This document shows, in pieces, positions 895-10,516 of a stretch of DNA of 10,522 bases. Position 1 is the first letter of the stretch. Every line of letters starts with the position of its first letter. Origin of the DNA: a virus. The notes beneath the pieces are model-generated. The model saw only the letters and a program-made list of their open reading frames with translations, did no database searches and was not told the DNA's origin. The stretch lies in the UHGV virus genome UHGV-1718161. The stretch is one strand, 5' to 3'. The position numbers were made by a program, and so were the translations under genes.

Positions 895-1836
895 TCACCC
901 CCTGAATCCTGCCGGGATCTGGCTGTAGTCCACGTTGTCGTAACTGGCTTTGAAGTACGGGTCTTCGCGTTTTTCGGTGTACGTGCTGACGGACGGCGAT
1001 AAGCGCAGGGAAAGCTCATCCCATTTTTCCCGCAGCTTCGACGGGCTGAGCACGTTACGGCACCAGAACGGATCGCGGCTGACGCGGCTGTACATCTCGC
1101 AGATTTGTTTGTGAGTACGACCATCCTGCACACACATCAGGCGAATTTCGTTTGCCCAGGCTGTCCAGTTCGGTTCTTTGGGACGAACCACCTCGCCGTC
1201 ACATTCGGCGGCCTGCTCGTACAGGGCGATGATTTTTTTCCAGAGCCACTGTGCGCAGGTCAAATCATCCTGCGTTCCCCACTGGCGCTTTTTAGGGCTG
1301 AATACAACCGCATTAGGATGGCGAGTTAAAAACTCCTGTTCAGCCGTCTGCGTGTCCGGTTGCGAAGCGTCCGGACGAGAAGTTTTTTTATCTGACGGAT
1401 CATGTTTTGATTTTACTGACGGATCCCCGCCAGATTCTGACGGGTGAAAACCCGCTTTTTTGCCAGATTTCGACGCATCAAATTTTGACGGGTCAGATTT
1501 TGATGCGTCAGATTTTGACGGGTCAGAATCTGACAATTGAGAAAATGCCGCTGCCTGAAGCTTCGCAACGTTAAGCTGATAAACATTCGACGCATTGCGG
1601 TTACCCTGGCGACGCGCCTTACGCGTTAACCAGCCTTCTGCTTCCAGCCGTGCGATAGCCGTTCTGACGGTACTCATCCCCGCGCCAATCTGACGGGCAA
1701 TGGTTTCAATTGATGGCCAGCACACACCTTCGTCATTACTGAAATCAGCCAGGCGGGCCATAATTGCCACGCTGGATAATTTCATGCCTGACGCAGCGCA
1801 ACCATCCCATACATAGCCGGTTAATTTAGTGCTCAT
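895..1836 (-). CDS. phage replication initiation protein (lambda O-like / replisome organizer) with internal origin iterons
   Basis: 313-aa ORF; ATG at 1836-1834 with GAGG upstream. N-terminal winged-HTH-like segment (SSVAIMARLADFSNDEGVCWPSIETIARQIGAGMSTVRTAIARLEAEGWL). Central low-complexity pentapeptide repeats (DPSKS/DASKS) are encoded by 15-bp DNA direct repeats, the arrangement lambda uses for ori inside O. Sits downstream of cro/CII as expected. Confidence 0.8.
   Translation of the reverse strand: MSTKLTGYVWDGCAASGMKLSSVAIMARLADFSNDEGVCWPSIETIARQIGAGMSTVRTAIARLEAEGWLTRKARRQGNRNASNVYQLNVAKLQAAAFSQLSDSDPSKSDASKSDPSKFDASKSGKKAGFHPSESGGDPSVKSKHDPSDKKTSRPDASQPDTQTAEQEFLTRHPNAVVFSPKKRQWGTQDDLTCAQWLWKKIIALYEQAAECDGEVVRPKEPNWTAWANEIRLMCVQDGRTHKQICEMYSRVSRDPFWCRNVLSPSKLREKWDELSLRLSPSVSTYTEKREDPYFKASYDNVDYSQIPAGFRG
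1431..1538. repeat. iteron array (about 6 tandem 15-16-bp direct repeats, consensus CAGATTTTGACGGGT) inside the replication gene; probable phage origin of replication
   Basis: Seen directly: cagattctgacgggtg (1431-1446), ccagatttcgacgcat (1463-1478), caaattttgacgggt (1479-1493), cagattttgatgcgt (1494-1508), cagattttgacgggt (1509-1523), cagaatctgacaatt (1524-1538). Degenerate CTGACGGAT copies lie at about 1391-1400 and 1416-1424. Confidence 0.65.
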
Positions 1837-1845
1837 GACCGACCT

Positions 1846-2184
1846 CTATTTCCCTGAATTTACGACGAAACTGTTCGAGCGGACTGAAGCATTCATGCTC
1901 ATAGCCTTCGCGGAGGTAGATAACCCGTTGTGTTTCCGGCTCCCAACGAATGACTCTGACGGGTACTCCGTAGTGATCTTTGAACCAGCGGTTAACTTGT
2001 CGCAAAGGACTGTCTCCTTTTGCCGGTTAAAATCACCCACAGCCCACTCTGCAAAGCTGTGGGTTACAATTACCCTGCCACCTGGTACATTTACTGCATA
2101 GCAATACTCCACCTTCGCTTTTCCACCCGGTACAGGAAGCGCAATCAGTTGCGAGCGACGGTAGTGTGTTGTTAAACTGTTCAT
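1846..2184 (-). CDS. hypothetical phage early protein (112 aa)
   Basis: ATG at 2184-2182 overlaps the stop of the upstream CII-like gene (ATGA), with GGAGAA 8 nt upstream. No family recognised. The plus-strand ORF 1829..2101 on the same DNA is rejected in its favour. Confidence 0.55.
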
Positions 2185-2732
2185 GCGTTAGTTTCTCCAC
2201 AGTCACGACACGCCACGGCGCCCGGAGCTGCACACTCGCGGGCGTCACTACTTTCTGAAACGCAAAAGATTTTGTAGACCAGAGCTGCATGCTCCTGCAG
2301 CTTCGAAATTGAGAGGTACAGCTCATCGTTAATTGCTGTCTTCTCATGCGGTTCCACTACACCGTCTTCAATTGCTGAACGAATCTGTCTGGAATAACTG
2401 CCGATCTGTTCAATGACTTCCAGCAGACGCTGGTTAATATCGGCATTGTCCACATCCTCGACGTCAGGAAGAGACACAAAGATGCCATTTGCAGACTGCG
2501 CCACAGCGTCAGCAATGAAGTGAGTTCCACCAGCACGTTGCAAAATCATTGCCCATCCCAGCGGGAAAATCTGATCGCCATCGGCACGAAGGCGGTTAAA
2601 TAATGCGTTCTCTGTTACGTCCAGCCAGTCAGCAGCTTCAGCGTAACCCCCCGGCAACGCTGCGATAGTTTTTCTGACAGCTTTCACGTACCACTCAGGC
2701 TGTTTTTCTACTTTCCAGTGATGCTTACCCAC
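2181..2732 (-). CDS. CII-like phage regulatory protein (phage 186 CII / CP76-type), 183 aa
   Basis: ORF track runs to 2843 but that would overlap cro. GTG at 2732-2730 with GAGGAG 6 nt upstream starts 29 nt after the cro stop. Residue pattern (...[21 protein letters not shown]...FIADAVAQ...) resembles the 186-type CII family as I remember it; family assignment is moderate. Confidence 0.6.
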
Positions 2733-2760
2733 GGTTAACTCCTCGTTTCTGTGGTTACGT

Positions 2761-3024
2761 TTACGCAGCTGAACCGCTAACTTTTGAATAGCACTCAGGT
2801 AATCCATCATTTGGATTGGGGTAAATATCAGGACGCAGTTCATGAGGGGTCACGGACCAGTTTCCCAACTCACAAAGTTGTAAAACCCGTTCTGACGGGA
2901 CTTGATTGTTAATTACCCAATTAGCGACGGATTGAGTGGACTTAAAACCAAAGTGACGGGCTACTTCAGATAAAGATTTTCCCGCAGCTTTTACTGCTTT
3001 CTCTGTGTAGTTTTGAGATGACAT
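2761..3024 (-). CDS. cro: Cro-like HTH regulator (YdaS/Cro family)
   Basis: 87-aa ORF divergent from the cI-like gene; ATG at 3024-3022 with GGAGGAG upstream. HTH segment (LSEVARHFGFKSTQSVANWV) and the ...ERVLQLCELGNWSVTPHELRPD... pattern typical of YdaS/Cro-type proteins (recalled). Confidence 0.8.
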   Translation of the reverse strand: MSSQNYTEKAVKAAGKSLSEVARHFGFKSTQSVANWVINNQVPSERVLQLCELGNWSVTPHELRPDIYPNPNDGLPECYSKVSGSAA

Positions 3025-3056
3025 ACCTTTCTCCTCCGAAATTCAGAGGGATGATG

Positions 3057-3092
3057 CTACTTAAAATAGCAAAATGCAACTACTTAAAATAG
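3057..3092. promoter_or_regulatory. OR-like operator/promoter region between divergent cro and cI: two copies of the 13-bp site CTACTTAAAATAG
   Basis: Seen directly: ctacttaaaatag at 3057-3069 and again at 3080-3092 (centres 23 bp apart), in the 70-bp gap between the cro start (3024) and the cI start. Related 13-mers with the same CTA...TAG ends occur at 3893-3905 and 5305-5317. Confidence 0.5.
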
Positions 3093-3094
3093 AA

Positions 3095-3835
3095 ATGACT
3101 AGCGTATGTGATGCGAGTAATCTTCTACCTATGGTAGAAGAACAGAAGTATCCAGATTTCGCCAAGAGACTAAACGAGCTAATGACAAACAAGGGAATTT
3201 CTGTCACCCAACTCAAAAGTCTTGTGGGCGTTACATATGAAATGGCGCGGCGATACACAATCGGCGCTGCGAAGCCTCGTGCCTCTGTCATGAATAAACT
3301 TGCATTGGCTCTGGGGGTATCAGCTTCATATTTAGAATATGGTGTTGGCGAGAGAGAAGGATGTAAGGAAATGGCAAGCATCCCCAATCCAACAAAACCC
3401 GATGTATACAGGATAGAAGTTTTGGATCTTAGCGTTAGCGCAGGACCTGGGACCTATATGCTTTCAGACTATGTTGATGTGCTCTACGCCATTGAGTTCA
3501 CAACAGAGCATGCCCGTTCTCTTTTCGGTAATCGTTCTCAAGATGATATTAAAGTTATGACTGTAAATGGCGACAGCATGTCCCCTACTCTAGTTTCCGG
3601 AGATCGACTGTTTGTCGACATTTCTGTTCGCAACTTCCAAACTGATGGTGTTTACTCTTTCGTTTATGGTAAGACGTTCCACGTTAAACGTCTACAAATG
3701 CAAGGCAACAAACTCGCCGTTCTTTCGGATAATCCAGCCTATGAGAAATGGTACATTGATGAGAAGTCCCAAGATCAACTTTATGTTATGGGCAAAGCAT
3801 TGATACACGAATCAATTAAATACAACCGGCTTTAG
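3095..3835 (+). CDS. cI: cI-type prophage repressor (N-terminal XRE-family HTH, C-terminal LexA-like S24 peptidase domain)
   Basis: HTH (FAKRLNELMTNKGISVTQLKSLVGVTYEMARRY), S24 serine motif (VNGDSMSPTL) and downstream catalytic Lys (FHVKRL). Start is ambiguous: the ORF-track ATG at 3074 lies between the two operator copies, so I prefer ATG 3095 (leaderless-style); ATG 3131 is also possible. Stop TAG 3833-3835. Confidence 0.85.
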   Translation: MTSVCDASNLLPMVEEQKYPDFAKRLNELMTNKGISVTQLKSLVGVTYEMARRYTIGAAKPRASVMNKLALALGVSASYLEYGVGEREGCKEMASIPNPTKPDVYRIEVLDLSVSAGPGTYMLSDYVDVLYAIEFTTEHARSLFGNRSQDDIKVMTVNGDSMSPTLVSGDRLFVDISVRNFQTDGVYSFVYGKTFHVKRLQMQGNKLAVLSDNPAYEKWYIDEKSQDQLYVMGKALIHESIKYNRL

Positions 3836-4006: not shown

Positions 4007-5083
4007 ATGACAAAATCAATTTGTTTTTTTAATCATAAAGGTGGGGTAAGTAAAACCACAACAACCTTCAATCTTGGATGGGCACTTGCGGATGAAGGCA
4101 AGAAAGTATTGATGGTTGACCTTGATTCGCAATGTAATCTAACAGGAATGGTTCTTGGCTATGAAAAGATTGATGAGGGTTTAGATTCTTTTTATTCTAG
4201 CAGAGATAACTTAACTCTTGGACCTATTGTAGAATATTTGATTAATGGCGGACAACCTGAAGCATACCTTGAAAAAGAAACGGGAAAATTACACCCTACA
4301 CTGCATGAAAACCTTCTGCTTCTTCCCGGACATTTAGATGTTTCGGACTTAGATTCACAGATAAGTGTTTCTCTAAAAATTGCTGCTGGTATTCCTGCTA
4401 CAAGAAATATACCAGGGAACCTGCCAAAAATATTACAGCTAATCGCCTTGAAGAATAATATTGATTACATTCTTTATGATCTCAGCCCTAATGTTGGAGG
4501 TTTAAATGAAGTAGTTCTCATGTCAAGTGACTATTTTATCGTACCTGTAGCTCCAGACTTTTTTTGCTGGCAAGCAATTCGCTCTCTCTCAAAAAATATA
4601 CCTCGCTGGCACAAAGAATTAGCATTATTTAAAGAAAATAATGATGGTAACTCTTCACAATCAATTAAAAATGCACCGCAGTTTCTAGGTATGATTCAGC
4701 AGAGATACAGGCCGCGTAAAGGAGCACCTGTAAAATCTTTCGAAAAATGGATGGCAGCTATCCGTGATGCTGTTGATTCGATCTTAGTGCCAAATCTAGA
4801 AAAAATTACCTGCATAATTCCACGAGATAAAGTGCAACATGCAATTAACAAAACAACAGTCAGTGGAGATTTATCAGCCTATGATCTTGCGCATATTTCC
4901 GATTTCAACTCATTAATCGCAATAAGCCAACAACTAGCGACACCTGTTTTCTCCATCAGTGATCAGCAAATTCGCGATTCAGGGCAATTTGGGCATGCCT
5001 TAAATACAATGAAATCAAGCAGAGACGCCTTTAACGAACAATTTAAAGGGCTGGCTCAACGAGTTCTAGAACTTACAAAGTAA
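4007..5083 (+). CDS. ParA/MinD-superfamily ATPase with a roughly 120-aa C-terminal extension (358 aa); candidate lysogen-expressed exclusion/defence protein
   Basis: Deviant Walker A NHKGGVSKTT (res 9-18), ParA-type LMVDLDSQCNL, Walker-B-like ILYDLSP. AAGGA/GAGAAA RBS before ATG 4007. Sits in a visibly AT-rich segment directly downstream of cI in the same orientation and is followed by an intrinsic terminator. No ParB-like partner ORF or parS-like repeats nearby. Confidence 0.85.
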   Translation: MTKSICFFNHKGGVSKTTTTFNLGWALADEGKKVLMVDLDSQCNLTGMVLGYEKIDEGLDSFYSSRDNLTLGPIVEYLINGGQPEAYLEKETGKLHPTLHENLLLLPGHLDVSDLDSQISVSLKIAAGIPATRNIPGNLPKILQLIALKNNIDYILYDLSPNVGGLNEVVLMSSDYFIVPVAPDFFCWQAIRSLSKNIPRWHKELALFKENNDGNSSQSIKNAPQFLGMIQQRYRPRKGAPVKSFEKWMAAIRDAVDSILVPNLEKITCIIPRDKVQHAINKTTVSGDLSAYDLAHISDFNSLIAISQQLATPVFSISDQQIRDSGQFGHALNTMKSSRDAFNEQFKGLAQRVLELTK

Positions 5084-5090
5084 TGCATGT

Positions 5091-5127
5091 GCCCGGCCGC
5101 ATAACCGGGCTTTACTCTTCTTTCTCC
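5091..5127 (+). terminator. rho-independent terminator after the ParA-like gene
   Basis: GCCCGG (5091-5096), loop ccgcataa, CCGGGC (5105-5110), followed by a T-rich tract tttactcttctttct. Confidence 0.6.
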
Positions 5128-5268: not shown

Positions 5269-5326
5269 CAACAACAAATATCTACTTTTTGTTGTTGATT
5301 TTTGCTACTTTAAGTAGCAACATAAT
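5269..5326 (+). promoter_or_regulatory. pL/OL-like regulatory region: two adjacent palindromes plus a -10-like CATAAT
   Basis: Inverted repeat caacaacaaa (5269-5278) / tttgttgttg (5288-5297). Perfect 19-bp palindrome ttgctacttTaagtagcaa (5302-5320) containing the operator-like 13-mer CTACTTTAAGTAG (5305-5317). CATAAT at 5321-5326, TTGATT at 5295-5300 (spacing not ideal). Position mirrors lambda oL/pL after the rex slot. Confidence 0.35.
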
Positions 5327-5404
5327 GTAAGCTATCACGGACAGGCAGGACGCCCACGAAGTAGCCTCCTGGGACATATGAAGTCCAGGATGATTCGTTA
5401 GCAA

Positions 5405-5428
5405 CAAAAAAGCGCCCTACAGGACGCT
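5405..5428 (-). terminator. rho-independent terminator of the minus-strand 173-aa gene
   Basis: On the minus strand: AGCGTCC-TGTA-GGGCGCT (7-bp stem with one G-U pair) followed by TTTTTTGTTGC, about 40 nt after the stop at 5471. Confidence 0.55.
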
Positions 5429-5430
5429 TA

Positions 5431-5443
5431 GCTCTTTAACAAT
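5431..5443 (+). promoter_or_regulatory. boxA-like antitermination motif (GCTCTTTAACAAT), rrn/phage-21-type
   Basis: Plus-strand gcttaGCTCTTTAACAATctggg matches the rrn boxA core TGCTCTTTAACAA and resembles the phage 21 nut boxA as I recall it. Lies about 110 nt downstream of the pL-like palindrome and 2 nt after a hairpin (boxB-before-boxA order, as in rrn leaders). Confidence 0.4.
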
Positions 5444-5470
5444 CTGGGTATCATCCAACCAATGCAAGAT

Positions 5471-5992
5471 TTAAGGAATCCAAGGCGAATTCAGATCTCG
5501 CCCCAACTCACGTAATGATCTTGGTCGTTCGTACATCGGATTTTTTTCCATAAGAAATTTATTTTCACAGTGAAGGCAACGGCTTGTAAGAAAATGAGAA
5601 GTTTTACCTACTGGAAGCGGATGAAGTATCGATTTTATATTTTTGGAATAACAAAGTGGGCACAGATGCACAGTTATTTCTTTTCCACTCACAATTTCAT
5701 TTTTAGAGTAAACAAAAGCACCAGAGTCAAGCTGATCAAGGACATATCCTTCTACCTTGGCACAAAAATCTTCAAACTCTGCAATTTTTGCTTTGAGATG
5801 CATCACCTCTTCATCACGAAGGCGGATCGCATCGCCAAGAGAGAAGCATTCTGCCTGAAGCGTGATTAGTTTGTTCTGGAGTTCAATGGTTGCAGCTTTA
5901 ACTTCTGCATCCGTTTTCGCGTCATTAATAACCTTAGCAAGACCGGCAGTCTCCTTTATAGCGGCCATAGCCGCAGACAGTTCAGCTATCAC
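5471..5992 (-). CDS. hypothetical coiled-coil protein with a C-terminal C4 zinc ribbon (173 aa)
   Basis: N-terminal 80 residues are Ala/Lys/Glu-rich and helical; CPLC (111-114) and CLHC (139-142) form CxxC-x24-CxxC. ORF-track start is a GTG at 5992; the first ATG is at 5968-5966, neither with a strong SD. Own terminator downstream. Antisense plus-strand ORFs (5570..5869, 5862..6056) look like low-complexity shadows. Confidence 0.7.
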   Translation of the reverse strand: MIAELSAAMAAIKETAGLAKVINDAKTDAEVKAATIELQNKLITLQAECFSLGDAIRLRDEEVMHLKAKIAEFEDFCAKVEGYVLDQLDSGAFVYSKNEIVSGKEITVHLCPLCYSKNIKSILHPLPVGKTSHFLTSRCLHCENKFLMEKNPMYERPRSLRELGRDLNSPWIP

Positions 5993-6052: not shown

Positions 6053-6461
6053 ATAACTAGGTCCACCTCGCCTGATGTGGCTAAAAGCAGGCACATAACA
6101 GCTAAGTATTTTCAACCAGAGAGAATCCTTAGCGTTGTGGTGAATGCGGCTCAGCGCACGCGGGTTAAGGTTGAGGCTGACAGTCGACCTTCTGTGGATA
6201 CCCACCCGCCTGGTGTGCAACCTTCGCCAGGCACCGGGAGGCACCCGGCACCACAACTTTATGCTGTGTGTAGTCCTGGCGGTATCAGCTTGTACCCTTG
6301 CTTCCGGCTGGTACCGTCCTTTTTACAAAACAGAGAAGAGTATCACCGGACGACGGGCTCATAACCCAATCCATCCGGGCGGCTGCCACCGCAGGTGTTC
6401 TTCTCTGTTTTGTGGAGAAACCAACCGACCTTGCAGGGTCGATATGATGGGGAGCAGCAAA

Positions 6462-6824
6462 ATGGCTAGCGAACGCAGTACTGATGTGCAGGCATTTATC
6501 GGGGAGCTGGACGGCGGCGTATTTGAAACCAAAATCGGCGCAGTTCTCAGTGAAGTCGCTTCCGGTGTGATGAACACGAAAACCAAAGGTAAGGTCTCGC
6601 TCAACCTGGAAATCGAACCGTTTGATGAGAACCGTGTAAAAATCAAACACAAACTCTCATATGTTCGCCCGACTAACCGCGGGAAAATTTCCGAAGAAGA
6701 CACCACCGAAACGCCGATGTATGTCAATCGCGGTGGTCGCCTGACTATTCTGCAGGAAGACCAGGGACAATTACTGACTCTTGCCGGTGAACCTGACGGA
6801 AAACTCCGCGCAGCAGGTCGTTAA
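6462..6824 (+). CDS. yfdP: hypothetical early-left accessory protein, YfdP-like (120 aa)
   Basis: The ORF-track frame is open from 6144, but the N-terminal 100 aa are R/C/W/P-rich junk typical of GC-rich non-coding DNA. ATG 6462 is preceded by GGAGC. Length and position match the first gene of the yfdP-Q-R-S-T block of E. coli K-12 CPS-53 (recalled from memory). Confidence 0.6.
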   Translation: MASERSTDVQAFIGELDGGVFETKIGAVLSEVASGVMNTKTKGKVSLNLEIEPFDENRVKIKHKLSYVRPTNRGKISEEDTTETPMYVNRGGRLTILQEDQGQLLTLAGEPDGKLRAAGR

Positions 6825-6889: not shown

Positions 6890-7714
6890 ATGTCTCAGAA
6901 CTTAGACGCAACCGCAATTAATCAAATCCATGCCCTTATTTCTGCTCAGGGTGTTAATGAAATTATCAGTAAGATTGGTGCCGATGCTGTGGCATTGCCT
7001 GAGAATTTCCGCATTCATGATCTGGAAAAATTTAATTTAAATCGCTTCCGTTTCCGTGGTGCGCTTTCCACTGCCAGCATCGATGACTTTACCCGTTATT
7101 CTAAAGATCTTGCAGATGAAGGCACCCGCTGCTTTATCGATGCTGATAATATGCGAGCCGTCAGTGTGCTTAACCTGGGTACTATTGATGAACCAGGTCA
7201 CGCAGATAACACCGCCACTCTCAAACTGAAAAAGACAGCACCGTTCTCTGCCCTGTTGTCTGTTAACGGCGAGCGTAACTCCCAGAAGTCACTGGCAGAA
7301 TGGATTGAAGACTGGGCCGACTACCTTGTGGGCTTTGATGCTAATGGTGACGCCATTCAGGCAACAAAAGCGGCTGCGGCGGTCCGTAAAATCACGATTG
7401 AAGCAAACCAGACCGCTGATTTTGAAGACAATGACTTCAGCGGCAAACGCTCTCTGATGGAGTCTGTCGAAGCGAAAACCAAAGACATTATGCCAGTAGC
7501 ATTTGAGTTTAAATGCGTTCCGTTTGAAGGCCTGAAAGAACGTCCGTTTAAATTACGCCTCAGCATTATCACTGGTGATCGCCCTGTACTGGTTCTGCGC
7601 ATTATTCAGCTGGAAGCAGTGCAGGAAGAAATGGCTAACGAATTTCGTGATCTGCTTGTTGAAAAATTCAAAGACAGCAAAGTAGAAACCTTTATTGGTA
7701 CTTTCACCGCCTGA
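6890..7714 (+). CDS. yfdQ: YfdQ-family phage protein (274 aa), function unknown
   Basis: Clean ORF with GAGGA 6 nt before ATG 6890, followed by a hairpin terminator. Length, sequence impression and gene order match YfdQ of K-12 CPS-53 (recalled). Confidence 0.75.
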
Positions 7715-7726
7715 TTTCATTACTGC

Positions 7727-7748
7727 AAATGCCCCTGCGGGGGCATTT
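7727..7748 (+). terminator. stem-loop / weak intrinsic terminator after the yfdQ-like gene
   Basis: AAATGCCCC-tgcg-GGGGCATTT, a perfect 9-bp stem at 7727-7748; the downstream T-tract is short. Confidence 0.4.
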
Positions 7749-7841
7749 ATGGAAACGTAATTAACTCAATAATCGCCTGATGGCGAGGGTTTTCTTTAAC
7801 CAAAATTCAGCGCGGTGCAGCGCATATACGTGGAGAACAAA

Positions 7842-8378
7842 ATGTCATTTATTAAAACTTTTTCCGGGAAGCATTTTTATTATGACAGGATAAATAAAGA
7901 CGACATCGATATTAACGATATCGCGGTTTCCCTTTCAAATATCTGTCGCTTTGCCGGTCATCTTTCGCACTTCTACAGCGTCGCCCAACATGCGGTTCTT
8001 TGCAGCCAGCTGGTGCCGCAGGAATTTGCTTTTGAAGCGTTAATGCATGATGCAACAGAAGCGTATTGCCAGGACATTCCCGCACCACTGAAACGCCTTC
8101 TTCCTGACTATAAACAAATGGAAGAAAAAATAGACGCCGTAATCCGTGAGAAATACGGGTTACCCCCAGTTATGAGTACGCCCGTGAAATATGCCGATCT
8201 CATCATGCTGGCAACCGAACGCCGCGATCTCGGGCTTGATGATGGCTCTTTCTGGCCTGTACTGGAAGGTATCCCGGCAACAGAGATGTTCAACGTGATT
8301 CCACTGGCACCGGGCCATGCCTACGGGATGTTTATGGAACGCTTTAACGAGTTATCGGAGTTACGCAAATGCGCATGA
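7842..8378 (+). CDS. yfdR: HD-domain phosphohydrolase, YfdR-like (178 aa)
   Basis: ORF track starts at GTG 7815, but ATG 7842 has GGAGAA 5 nt upstream and gives 178 aa. HD motif in ...EALMHDATEAY..., upstream His residues in AGHLSHFYSVAQH. Matches my recollection of YfdR. Confidence 0.8.
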   Translation: MSFIKTFSGKHFYYDRINKDDIDINDIAVSLSNICRFAGHLSHFYSVAQHAVLCSQLVPQEFAFEALMHDATEAYCQDIPAPLKRLLPDYKQMEEKIDAVIREKYGLPPVMSTPVKYADLIMLATERRDLGLDDGSFWPVLEGIPATEMFNVIPLAPGHAYGMFMERFNELSELRKCA

Positions 8379-9036: not shown

Positions 9037-9386
9037 TGGAGCCATACAGCCTCACACTCGATGAGGCCTGTCATTTTCTCAAGATATCCAGACCGACTGC
9101 CATTAACTGGATACGCACAGGGCGTCTTCAGGCAACACGCAAAGATCCCACTAAGAATAAATCTCCTTACCTCACAACACGACAAGCCTGCATTGCGGCT
9201 CTTCAGTCTCCGCTGCATACTGTCCAGGTGAGCGCGGGTGATGGCATAACAGAGGAAAGAAAATGTCACTCTTCCGCAGAGGTGAAATATGGTACGCCAG
9301 TTTCACATTGCCGAACGGTAAAAGATTTAAACAGTCTCTTGGAACAAAGGACAAAAGGCAGGCGACAGAACTCCATGACAAGCTAA
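9036..9386 (+). CDS. xis: excisionase (P22 Xis-like, 116 aa)
   Basis: ATG 9036 overlaps the upstream stop (TAATG), with GAGGTG upstream. The ORF-track frame extends upstream to 8952 but coupling favours 9036. Lies immediately upstream of int and overlaps it (9263-9386). Sequence ([38 protein letters not shown]...) matches my memory of P22 Xis. Confidence 0.75.
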
Positions 9387-10426
9387 AGGCTGAAGCATGG
9401 CGGGTCAGCAAACTTGGTGAAATACCTGATATAACGTTCGAGGAAGCGTGTATCAGGTGGCTTGAAGAGAAAGCACATAAAAAATCACTGGACGATGACA
9501 AAAGCCGGATCGGATTCTGGCTTCAACATTTCGCAGGAATGCAACTAAGAGACATTACTGAATCAAAAATTTATTCAGCAATGCAGAAAATGACGAACCG
9601 GCGTCATGAGGAAAACTGGAAACTCAGGACAGAAGCATGCAGAAAAAAAGGGAAACCTGTTCCAGAATACACGCCAAAACCAGCGTCCGTTGCAACGAAG
9701 GCTACGCATCTTTCATTTATAAAAGCCCTACTAAGAGCCGCAGAGCGTGAATGGAAAATGCTGGATAAGGCACCAATTATTAAAGTGCCTCAACCAAAGA
9801 ATAAACGGATCCGCTGGCTGGAGCCCCATGAAGCACAAAGGCTGATTGATGAATGTCCGGAGCCATTAAAGTCTGTTGTTGAATTTGCACTGGCAACAGG
9901 CTTAAGACGCTCGAACATCATCAACCTTGAATGGCAACAAATAGACATGCAGCGCCGGGTGGCATGGATAAACCCGGAAGAGAGTAAATCAAACCGCGCA
10001 ATTGGCGTTGCGCTGAATGATACTGCATGTCGCGTTTTGAAAAAACAAATCGGGAATCATCACCGTTGGGTATTTGTGTACAAGGAAAGCTGTACCAAAC
10101 CAGACGGAACGAAAGCGCCAACAGTAAGGAAGATGCGGTATGACGCAAACACAGCCTGGAAAGCGGCGCTGAGACGGGCTGGTATTGATGATTTCAGATT
10201 TCACGACTTGAGACACACCTGGGCAAGTTGGCTGGTTCAAGCCGGAGTCCCGTTGTCAGTGTTACAGGAAATGGGAGGCTGGGAGTCTATCGAAATGGTT
10301 CGTCGATATGCTCACCTTGCACCTAATCACCTTACCGAACACGCACGGCAAATAGACTCGATCCTGAACCCATCGGTCCCAAATTCGTCCCAGTCAAAAA
10401 ATAAGGAAGGTACTAATGATGTGTAA
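9263..10426 (+). CDS. int: tyrosine-family site-specific integrase (P22 Int-like, 387 aa)
   Basis: GAGGAA RBS before ATG 9263. Catalytic signature: R in ATGLRRSN, H-x-x-R in [11 protein letters not shown], Tyr in VRRYAHL. Near-identical to my memory of P22 integrase, which uses thrW. Ends 14 bp before the tRNA 3' end. Confidence 0.95.
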
Positions 10427-10440
10427 CTTATTGATTTAAA

Positions 10441-10516
10441 TGGTGCCGATAATAGGAGTCGAACCTACGACCTTCGCATTACGAATGCGCTGCTCTACCA
10501 ACTGAGCTATATCGGC
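10441..10516 (-). tRNA. thrW: tRNA-Thr (anticodon CGU), thrW-type; prophage attachment site at its 3' end
   Basis: Reverse complement reads GCCGATATAGCTCAGTTGGTAGAGCAGCGCATTCGTAATGCGAAGGTCGTAGGTTCGACTCCTATTATCGGCACCA. Acceptor stem GCCGATA/TATCGGC, anticodon loop TTCGTAA (CGT), T-loop TTCGACT, encoded CCA. Confidence 0.9.

Follow-up and report, generated by a model that had tools for sequence, protein, structure and literature searches.

A conserved structured RNA and an rrn-type boxA in the early-left leader of an N-less lambdoid prophage: a candidate for N-independent antitermination

The early-left control region

The virus genome UHGV-1718161 is represented here by a stretch of 10,522 nucleotides (nt), referred to as the window, which covers the left arm of a lambdoid prophage inserted beside tRNA-Thr(CGU). 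Positions 5269-5447 of the window are the control region of an SfV/SfIV/e14-type prophage, comprising the left operators (OL) and the leftward promoter (pL), together with the start of the early-left transcript leader (Table 1). The gene order across the window makes the plus strand the 'leftward' direction of lambda and places the elements described below in the position of OL/pL and nutL. Downstream of the promoter lie a conserved structured RNA, called module A, and a small cassette, called module B, which contains a boxA sequence of the type found in the leaders of the rRNA (rrn) operons. With middling confidence, we read the whole as a repressor-controlled pL leader of an N-less prophage, in which module A and boxA would bring about N-independent read-through of terminators. 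The sequences show the anatomy, conservation and covariation of these elements; their strand, their activities and the start of transcription are inferred. The features named in a preliminary description of the locus, namely the palindromes, the promoter-like CATAAT, the hairpin and boxA, are all present; the description overlooked the RNA at 5337-5398, between promoter and boxA, which is the element that is never missing.

Table 1. Features of the window, in order of position
Feature	Position	Strand	Remarks
O-like replication gene	895-1836	-	with probable iterons
CII-like regulator	2181-2843	-	
Cro-like gene	2761-3024	-	
cI-type repressor	3074-3835	+	S24 peptidase domain
ParA-like ATPase	4007-5083	+	358 amino acids (aa); ParA/MinD-like P-loop
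Intrinsic terminator	5091-5110	+	end of the cI/ParA-like ATPase unit; 6 G-C pairs, then TTTACTCTT
Inverted repeat overlapping degenerate OL2	5269-5297	.	OL2 at about 5278-5296; only left half-site CTACTT kept
Predicted pL promoter	5295-5326	+	-35 TTGATT (5295-5300); 17-bp (base pair) spacer with OL1; -10 CAACAT (5318-5323) or CATAAT (5321-5326)
OL1, perfect 19-bp palindromic operator	5302-5320	.	half-site TGCTACTT shared with the right operator OR1
Module A, conserved structured leader RNA	5337-5398	+	62 nt; covariation; begins some 7 nt downstream of the predicted start
Module A, P1	5337-5341 with 5394-5398	+	
Module A, 24-nt core	5343-5366	+	AGGCAGGACGCCCACGAAGUAGCC; essentially invariant from E. 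coli to Aeromonas
Module A, P2	5344-5346 with 5352-5354	+	GGC/GCC
Module A, P3	5368-5372 with 5385-5389	+	conserved 12-nt loop GGCRUAYGAANN
Module B cassette	5406-5447		AAAAAA-hairpin-UU(A/C)-GCUCUUUAACAAUCUGG
Intrinsic terminator of minus-strand transcription	5406-5429	-	hairpin 5429-5410, then UUUUUU (5411-5406)
rrn-type boxA	5431-5447	+	GCUCUUUAACAA(U) and conserved tail UCUGG; plus-strand half of module B
Antisense moron gene	5471-5992	-	173 aa; phrog_1244; CxxC...CxxC motifs; inside the pL operon
STnc100-like segment	6104-6326	+	40.5 bits (gathering score 47); ends in a strong intrinsic terminator
YfdP-like gene	6444-6824	+	first credible plus-strand gene of the pL operon; followed by DUF2303/YfdQ and phosphatase families, then xis and int
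xis and int	9263-10426	+	
tRNA-Thr(CGU)	10441-10516	-	

Operators and the pL promoter

The window contains a single perfect 9+1+9 palindrome, TTGCTACTTTAAGTAGCAA at 5302-5320, compared with a mean of 0.023 in shuffled sequence. The half-site TGCTACTT occurs in exact copies at 3055, 5303 and 5312 (minus strand), and the pattern that the palindrome was said to have in common with the right operators (OR) is indeed found there: the core CTACTTTAAGTAG and the OR cores CTACTTAAAATAG (3057-3069 and 3080-3092) differ by one mismatch each. Moreover, when the OR block 3051-3096 is reverse-complemented, the 46-nt block 5278-5323 matches it at 80%, and the operators are spaced by 23 bp in both; OL thus mirrors OR, one of its sites being perfect and the other half-degenerate. 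The second inverted repeat (5269-5297) has perfect 10-bp arms, CAACAACAAA (5269-5278) and TTTGTTGTTG (5288-5297), and the OL2 site that it overlaps, again spaced 23 bp from OL1, aligns with OR2. Judged from sequence, the palindromes are the left operator set of the cI-type repressor encoded in the window, which is predicted to bind them. As in lambda, the operators are shared with OR and overlapped by the predicted promoter, and they follow the cI unit and its terminator, facing xis, int and the attachment site (att); they differ from those of lambda in being two rather than three, the second being half-degenerate.

The proposal of an operator-controlled leftward promoter agrees with this arrangement, as the OL set matches OR and overlaps a predicted promoter aimed at the xis-int arm. 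CATAAT lies immediately beside the palindrome, at 5321-5326. The promoter was read from the sequence, and its predicted start site is near 5330. Relatives carry near-consensus promoters at an equal distance from module A. Of 180 distinct sequences upstream of module A, which represent many immunity types, 132 contained a good promoter by score, and in 72 of these 132, many with TTGACA, the -10 element of the best promoter ended 13-16 nt before P1, the closing helix of module A; in the window, this distance is 13 nt. P1 would accordingly begin some 6-9 nt downstream of the transcription start.

Module A, a conserved structured RNA at the start of the transcript

A search of phage genomes showed that conservation is confined to 5334-5452 (94-97%), neither flank being conserved, and a more sensitive search resolved the conserved stretch into two independent modules, A and B. 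In alignments of 86 and 130 distinct sequences of module A, pairing in P1 and P3 is kept at 96-98%, and several positions occur with three or four types of base pair. Shifting the partners of these helices lowers pairing to about 40% or less, and none of 500 column shuffles reached the covariation score. A role as a pure DNA linker is ruled out by this covariation. Helix P2 (GGC/GCC) is invariant in the alignments and hence gives no covariation signal. The covariance model built for the element (R1) scores 82.6 bits at the copy in the window.

Several further features of module A were considered. A pseudoknot between GCC (31-34) and the loop GGC (41-44) is weakly supported, and a nested alternative fits equally well; pair 34-41 is CG in 105 sequences, UG in 16, GC in 2 and UA in 1, and is unpaired in 6. 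A mini-open reading frame, AUG AAG UCC AGG AUG AUU CGU UAG, was rejected, its AUG being replaced by ACG or AAG in many members. By-eye comparison found no match in the core to the RfaH ops element or to a -10-like pause element. Over positions 5359-5366, the core (AAGTAGCC) shares 7 of 8 letters with the half-site AAGTAGCA of the operators, a likeness that is probably due to chance, because the core is identical in phages of other immunity types. No Rfam 15 family lies over 5337-5398 (E up to 1 for the window, up to 0.001 for ten related loci), and the scans matched only elsewhere, to STnc100-like, DicF-like, C4 and isrK elements. The core sequence was not found in a literature search, and PasB, which is sited inside structural genes, is a different element.

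Module A is widespread. It was found in more than 50 phage records from Escherichia, Shigella, Salmonella, Klebsiella, Citrobacter, Yersinia, Pantoea, Pectobacterium and Aeromonas; a 23-nt core occurs in at least 120 viral contigs, and a 19-nt core in about 90 Enterobacterales species among GTDB representatives, the latter search also giving a few chance matches in high-GC genomes without the helices. Of 5426 complete E. coli genomes, 1086 carry the composite of modules A and B, unannotated in every case. Prophage e14 of E. coli K-12 MG1655 carries a full module A (L133 6107-6179, minus strand, corresponding to NC_000913.3 1202106-1202178), preceded by TTGACA-16-CATAAT and flanked by ymfK, the repressor gene, and ymfJ. 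RefSeq has no annotation for this copy, and a search for literature on leader transcription of ymfJ/e14 found nothing. In every annotated relative (SfIV, SfV, ST64B, mEp237, ZF40, pAEv1818, PHB10, SPN3UB, mEp460 and phiNP), module A stands 100-400 nt beyond the repressor gene, in the orientation of the early-left genes. It is present in a single copy per locus, and the first open reading frame (ORF) that follows differs completely between loci and is never N-like.

This position also makes module A the 5' untranslated region of varied first genes, and in e14 and SfV it ends 30-45 nt before their start codons. One explanation, which we consider rather unlikely, gives module A some other role in the leader, such as stabilising the 5' end, binding a host RNA-binding protein or controlling the first early gene as a ligand-sensing aptamer; boxA would then be incidental, and module B a portable terminator for antisense morons or a recombination linker. 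The invariant unpaired nucleotides within the closing helix are aptamer-like, and CsrA is a candidate binder, given two GGA motifs, AGGAC and GGAUGA; the P2 loop contains GGA. An aptamer or similar element agrees less well with the region after P1, which contains no conserved expression platform and differs completely in sequence between subfamilies, or with the retention of module A where hundreds of untranslated nucleotides follow. As to linkers, truncated 3' halves of module A, starting from AAGTAGC, occur in the K-12 prophage Rac (L134 9517-9553, minus strand, between racR and ydaG) and, downstream of both an antisense insert and a complete copy, in a further locus (L077 977-1035, minus strand). 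Such half copies suggest that recombination junctions of these mosaic genomes fall inside the invariant core and fit a secondary linker role, which leaves the compensatory changes unexplained.

Module B, a minus-strand terminator joined to boxA

The boxA of module B, previously described as a close match, is in fact exact: GCTCTTTAACAAT at 5431-5443 agrees with the E. coli rrnB leader boxA at 13 of 13 positions and is the only exact match in the window, where a given 12-mer is expected about 0.001 times. It lies at about +101 from the predicted pL start. In all 16 distinct variants of the cassette, boxA and the UCUGG that follows it are invariant, while loop, stem and downstream sequence vary; the cassette shows 92-97% nucleotide identity, as against 44-59% amino acid identity for the neighbouring protein. 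An exact boxA also occurs in a different, unrelated setting (locus L127), after a plus-strand terminator. On the strength of its invariance, the identity of the cassette and the copy in L127, boxA is taken to be a real plus-strand signal and not an accident of a U-rich flank. The second, unrelated context speaks against an incidental boxA, as does the 13-nt identity to the rrn sequence, which would be unexpected of the U-rich flank of a terminator.

The hairpin noted just before boxA is present at 5410-5429. It folds with -11.7 kcal/mol on the minus strand, where six U residues follow, and with -7.5 kcal/mol on the plus strand, and most variants of its stem keep their pairing on the minus strand through G.U pairs, whereas C/A mismatches break it on the plus strand. 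Thus, the hairpin is primarily a terminator for minus-strand transcription and probably terminates the transcript of the antisense moron gene. A function as an rrn boxB-like element was rejected accordingly, the hairpin being mainly the minus-strand terminator of a cassette that accompanies antisense genes. In particular, the kilobase (kb) that follows is occupied by a minus-strand ORF of 120 aa or more in 11 of 12 distinct loci with the cassette versus 17 of 78 without it, loci that are not phylogenetically independent. Selection of the hairpin on the minus strand and its association with antisense genes are what a portable terminator would lead one to expect.

Module B follows 27 of the 128 module A copies examined, and it is also found without module A in a Klebsiella phage. 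It follows that boxA cannot serve these phages as a general antitermination signal; some leaders have it as an accessory, but it is not what the module A family has in common. A further small element, module C (a AACGTTCCGCYRGCC(N)GGCG hairpin), was noted at L007 about 2581-2610, at L129 2973-3000 and in 38 other loci. In the Gifsy/mEp237-type subfamily it stands at a fixed +79 to +82 from module A, and in Klebsiella phage Kp4882-1 it is found without module A, ahead of module B. The pL leaders look like mosaics of small RNA modules.

The untranslated leader and the missing N gene

From the predicted start near 5330 to about 6444, the leader runs for about 1.1 kb without a credible gene on the sense strand, and about half of this untranslated stretch is antisense to the moron. 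A long untranslated leader RNA of this kind is a natural target of Rho. The leader also contains the intrinsic terminator 6278-6326, which consists of a hairpin (6278-6318) and UUUUU (6320-6324) and folds with -23 kcal/mol (z = -4.2). In the equivalent early-left stretch of SfV, a putative rho-independent terminator is annotated between orf33 and orf32 (L005 3033-3065). In ST64B and phiNP, 640-810 nt without an annotated gene follow module A, and boxA is absent. The terminator hairpin that closes the STnc100-like segment of the window is DicF-like, and a second STnc100-like segment lies at 7706-7885 (plus strand; 22.7 bits, below the gathering threshold). An STnc100-like element is also located between module A and the yfdP-like gene in SfV, SfIV, ST64B and Kp4882-1.

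In agreement with the preliminary description, no plus-strand ORF with an arginine-rich, N-like N-terminus follows pL in the window. SfIV, SfII and SfV have been reported to lack N in the SfIV genome paper (PMC3851460). Among individual candidates, SfV orf33, ZF40 gp09 and a 68-aa ORF of Kati are acidic or neutral and contain no arginine-rich motif, and the plus-strand ORF 5570-5869, the N-terminus of which is rich in lysine and arginine, is an antisense frame of the conserved minus-strand gene. The suggestion that the moron replaced N is unlikely, since relatives free of the moron likewise lack N.

Module A resembles nutL in position and size, boxA stands beside about a fifth of its copies, and its invariant core would suit recognition by one conserved protein; moreover, many genes of these phages have no described function. 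It is conceivable, and in our view improbable, that the leader is a protein-dependent, nut-like site at which a phage antiterminator unrelated to lambda N and encoded elsewhere recognises module A, and boxA where present. No conserved ORF adjoins module A, however, no hairpin follows boxA, and the order of the elements is the reverse of that in nut. Module A is also kept in ZF40, Aeromonas phage pAEv1818 and the Gifsy-like mEp237, which have little else in common in the compared regions, and even in the 15-kb remnant e14. The published finding that N is missing, cited above, counts against such a site as well.

A possible mechanism of N-independent read-through

The OL/pL set, the conserved exact boxA and the lack of an N gene make N-independent antitermination the most reasonable reading of the leader. 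This part of the earlier proposal of Nus-dependent, N-independent antitermination can be retained; the frequency of module B (27/128) does not allow boxA to be its general signal. Loss of the repressor would free pL, and RNA polymerase would start near 5330. Module A would then fold on the nascent transcript and make the elongation complex resistant to termination, acting in cis and without a phage protein, as do the put RNAs of phage HK022. BoxA would bring in the Nus complex, NusB/NusE included, and where an antisense insert lengthens the leader, this complex would shield the untranslated stretch antisense to the moron from Rho, in the way in which the leaders of ribosomal RNA and CRISPR are shielded. 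The modified polymerase could in this way pass the terminator 6278-6326 and reach the recombination, xis and int genes. It has been shown that put RNA suppresses both intrinsic and Rho-dependent termination without any phage protein (PMC9378689) and that boxA and Nus factors protect long untranslated transcripts of CRISPR (clustered regularly interspaced short palindromic repeats) from Rho without N (PMC7665894).

Several observations weigh against N-independent read-through. The pL hexamers of the window are weak (7-8 of 12 consensus matches) and are not called by a consensus scan. BoxA sits in the 3' flank of a minus-strand gene, beside the terminator of that gene, and may owe its conservation to being part of a mobile terminator cassette. 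It is possible that a trans-acting phage protein is encoded outside the regions examined. No second copy of module A was found after the rightward promoter (pR), in which the loci differ from HK022 with its putL and putR. Module A and HK022 gave no match in BLAST comparison, model R1 misses putL and putR, and the architectures differ, as module A has a closing helix, P1, around two hairpins and a short P2, whereas put consists of two long side-by-side stems. Sense-strand terminators were seen within 2 kb in 79 of 149 loci by a crude scan, which found more on the antisense strand; this census, which has no proper baseline and missed the window's own terminator, is not used as evidence.

Counts of wobble changes in module A (24 G.U versus 25 A/C, or 23 versus 10 without the terminal pair) likewise leave the strand unfixed, and we infer its assignment to the plus strand from context. 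That module A acts outside the pL transcript, either on the minus strand at the 3' end of antisense transcripts or as protein-binding DNA, would be consistent with these wobble statistics, which fail to separate the strands, and with the somewhat more stable folding of 5330-5470 on the minus strand. We nevertheless regard action outside the transcript as highly improbable. In loci with module B, a minus-strand terminator would halt transcription before it reaches module A; the orientation of module A relative to promoter and early genes is constant in every locus examined; and compensatory changes indicate a folded single strand.

Relation to known antitermination systems

The closest parallel to module A is offered by putL and putR of HK022, another N-less lambdoid phage, where an RNA of 60-70 nt likewise stands at the very start of the pL transcript. 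In putL, pairing begins at +3, compared with about +7 in module A. Each RNA has a pair of hairpins as well as unpaired nucleotides that are conserved, and terminators of the early operon lie downstream of it. Antitermination by put depends on the beta' zinc-binding domain of RNA polymerase. Homology was examined and rejected: BLAST in both directions and the covariance model failed, the one shared 8-mer, CAGGAUGA, is within chance expectation, and a search with putL finds a set of phages disjoint from those with module A. By analogy, module A may tentatively be viewed as a second, unrelated class of self-sufficient antiterminator RNA, a put analogue acting directly on RNA polymerase from within the first 70 nt of the pL transcript; this part of the interpretation we hold to be possible but doubtful.

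BoxA in turn recalls the rrn, CRISPR and suhB leaders: it stands near the start of a long untranslated transcript, on the sense strand and without N, and it is identical to the rrnB sequence at 13/13 positions. As in rrn leaders, a hairpin stands just upstream of boxA. Unlike there, selection maintains this hairpin as a terminator of the other strand, so that it is no equivalent of boxB; boxC is missing from module B, which has only AAUCUGG; and boxA accompanies only about a fifth of module A copies, Nus binding being predicted here.

P22 and phage 21 nut sites carry rrn-like boxA sequences, and the leader resembles the nutL sites of lambda, P22 and phage 21 in lying just downstream of OL/pL. 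It differs from lambda nutL in that the structured element precedes boxA and in the lack of both boxB and an arginine-rich N protein. No conserved hairpin of the lambda boxB type was found 3' of boxA, the cassette variants diverging right after AAUCUGG. Read from sequence, the leader would represent an N-independent, RNA-based variant of antitermination, the central RNA of which, as far as could be found, has not been described.

Processive antitermination by RNA alone has, to our knowledge, been described essentially for one small family, HK022 put and its close relatives, and the early-left expression of N-less lambdoid prophages (SfV, SfII, SfIV, ST64B, Gifsy-like prophages and e14) has so far gone unexplained. 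If the proposed function is correct, a second class of antiterminator RNA with an invariant 24-nt core would provide a new handle on the control of RNA polymerase by nascent RNA. The class would be far wider than put, extending to about 90 Enterobacterales species, a fifth of the complete E. coli genomes and e14 of K-12. Some phages would team module A with a Nus-recruiting boxA to cross antisense morons, and the pairing of boxA with such a moron suggests a general way in which phages could tolerate genes inserted against the direction of an operon. The mechanism would further matter for how prophages with serotype-conversion and virulence genes are induced and excised, and for their toxicity. 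The complete copy in e14, between ymfK and ymfJ, offers a convenient experimental system in E. coli K-12.

Other features of the window

The 173-aa protein of the moron shows 44-59% identity to proteins encoded at the same position in PhiR29_1 and Klebsiella phage Kp4882-1, and its N-terminus is coiled-coil-like; Pfam, NCBIfam and PADLOC contain no match to it. The gene in the moron position of SfIV and Kati is unrelated. Downstream, the PHROG match to the YfdP-like protein covers only residues 103-225 of the ORF 6144-6824, for which reason its real start is placed near 6444.

In the right arms of SfV (L005 308-496, minus strand) and ST64B (L006 242-430, minus strand), C4 antisense RNA and isrK were matched above the gathering score; no C4 or isrK match was found within the window.

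The first ATG of the cI ORF, at 3074, lies inside OR2, and the second, at 3098, just beyond the operator; ATG 3098 may be the real, possibly leaderless, start. The ParA/MinD-like ATPase gene directly follows cI, in the position that rexAB occupies in lambda, and shows weak PADLOC matches to the candidate defence protein PDC-M28B; it may be an exclusion or defence gene expressed in the lysogen. Its stop codon is directly followed by the terminator 5091-5110, which has the position of lambda tIMM. A 15-bp repeat in 4.3 copies (1464-1527) lies inside the O-like gene and probably constitutes the origin iterons; it also accounts for a spurious Rfam match to mir-5880.

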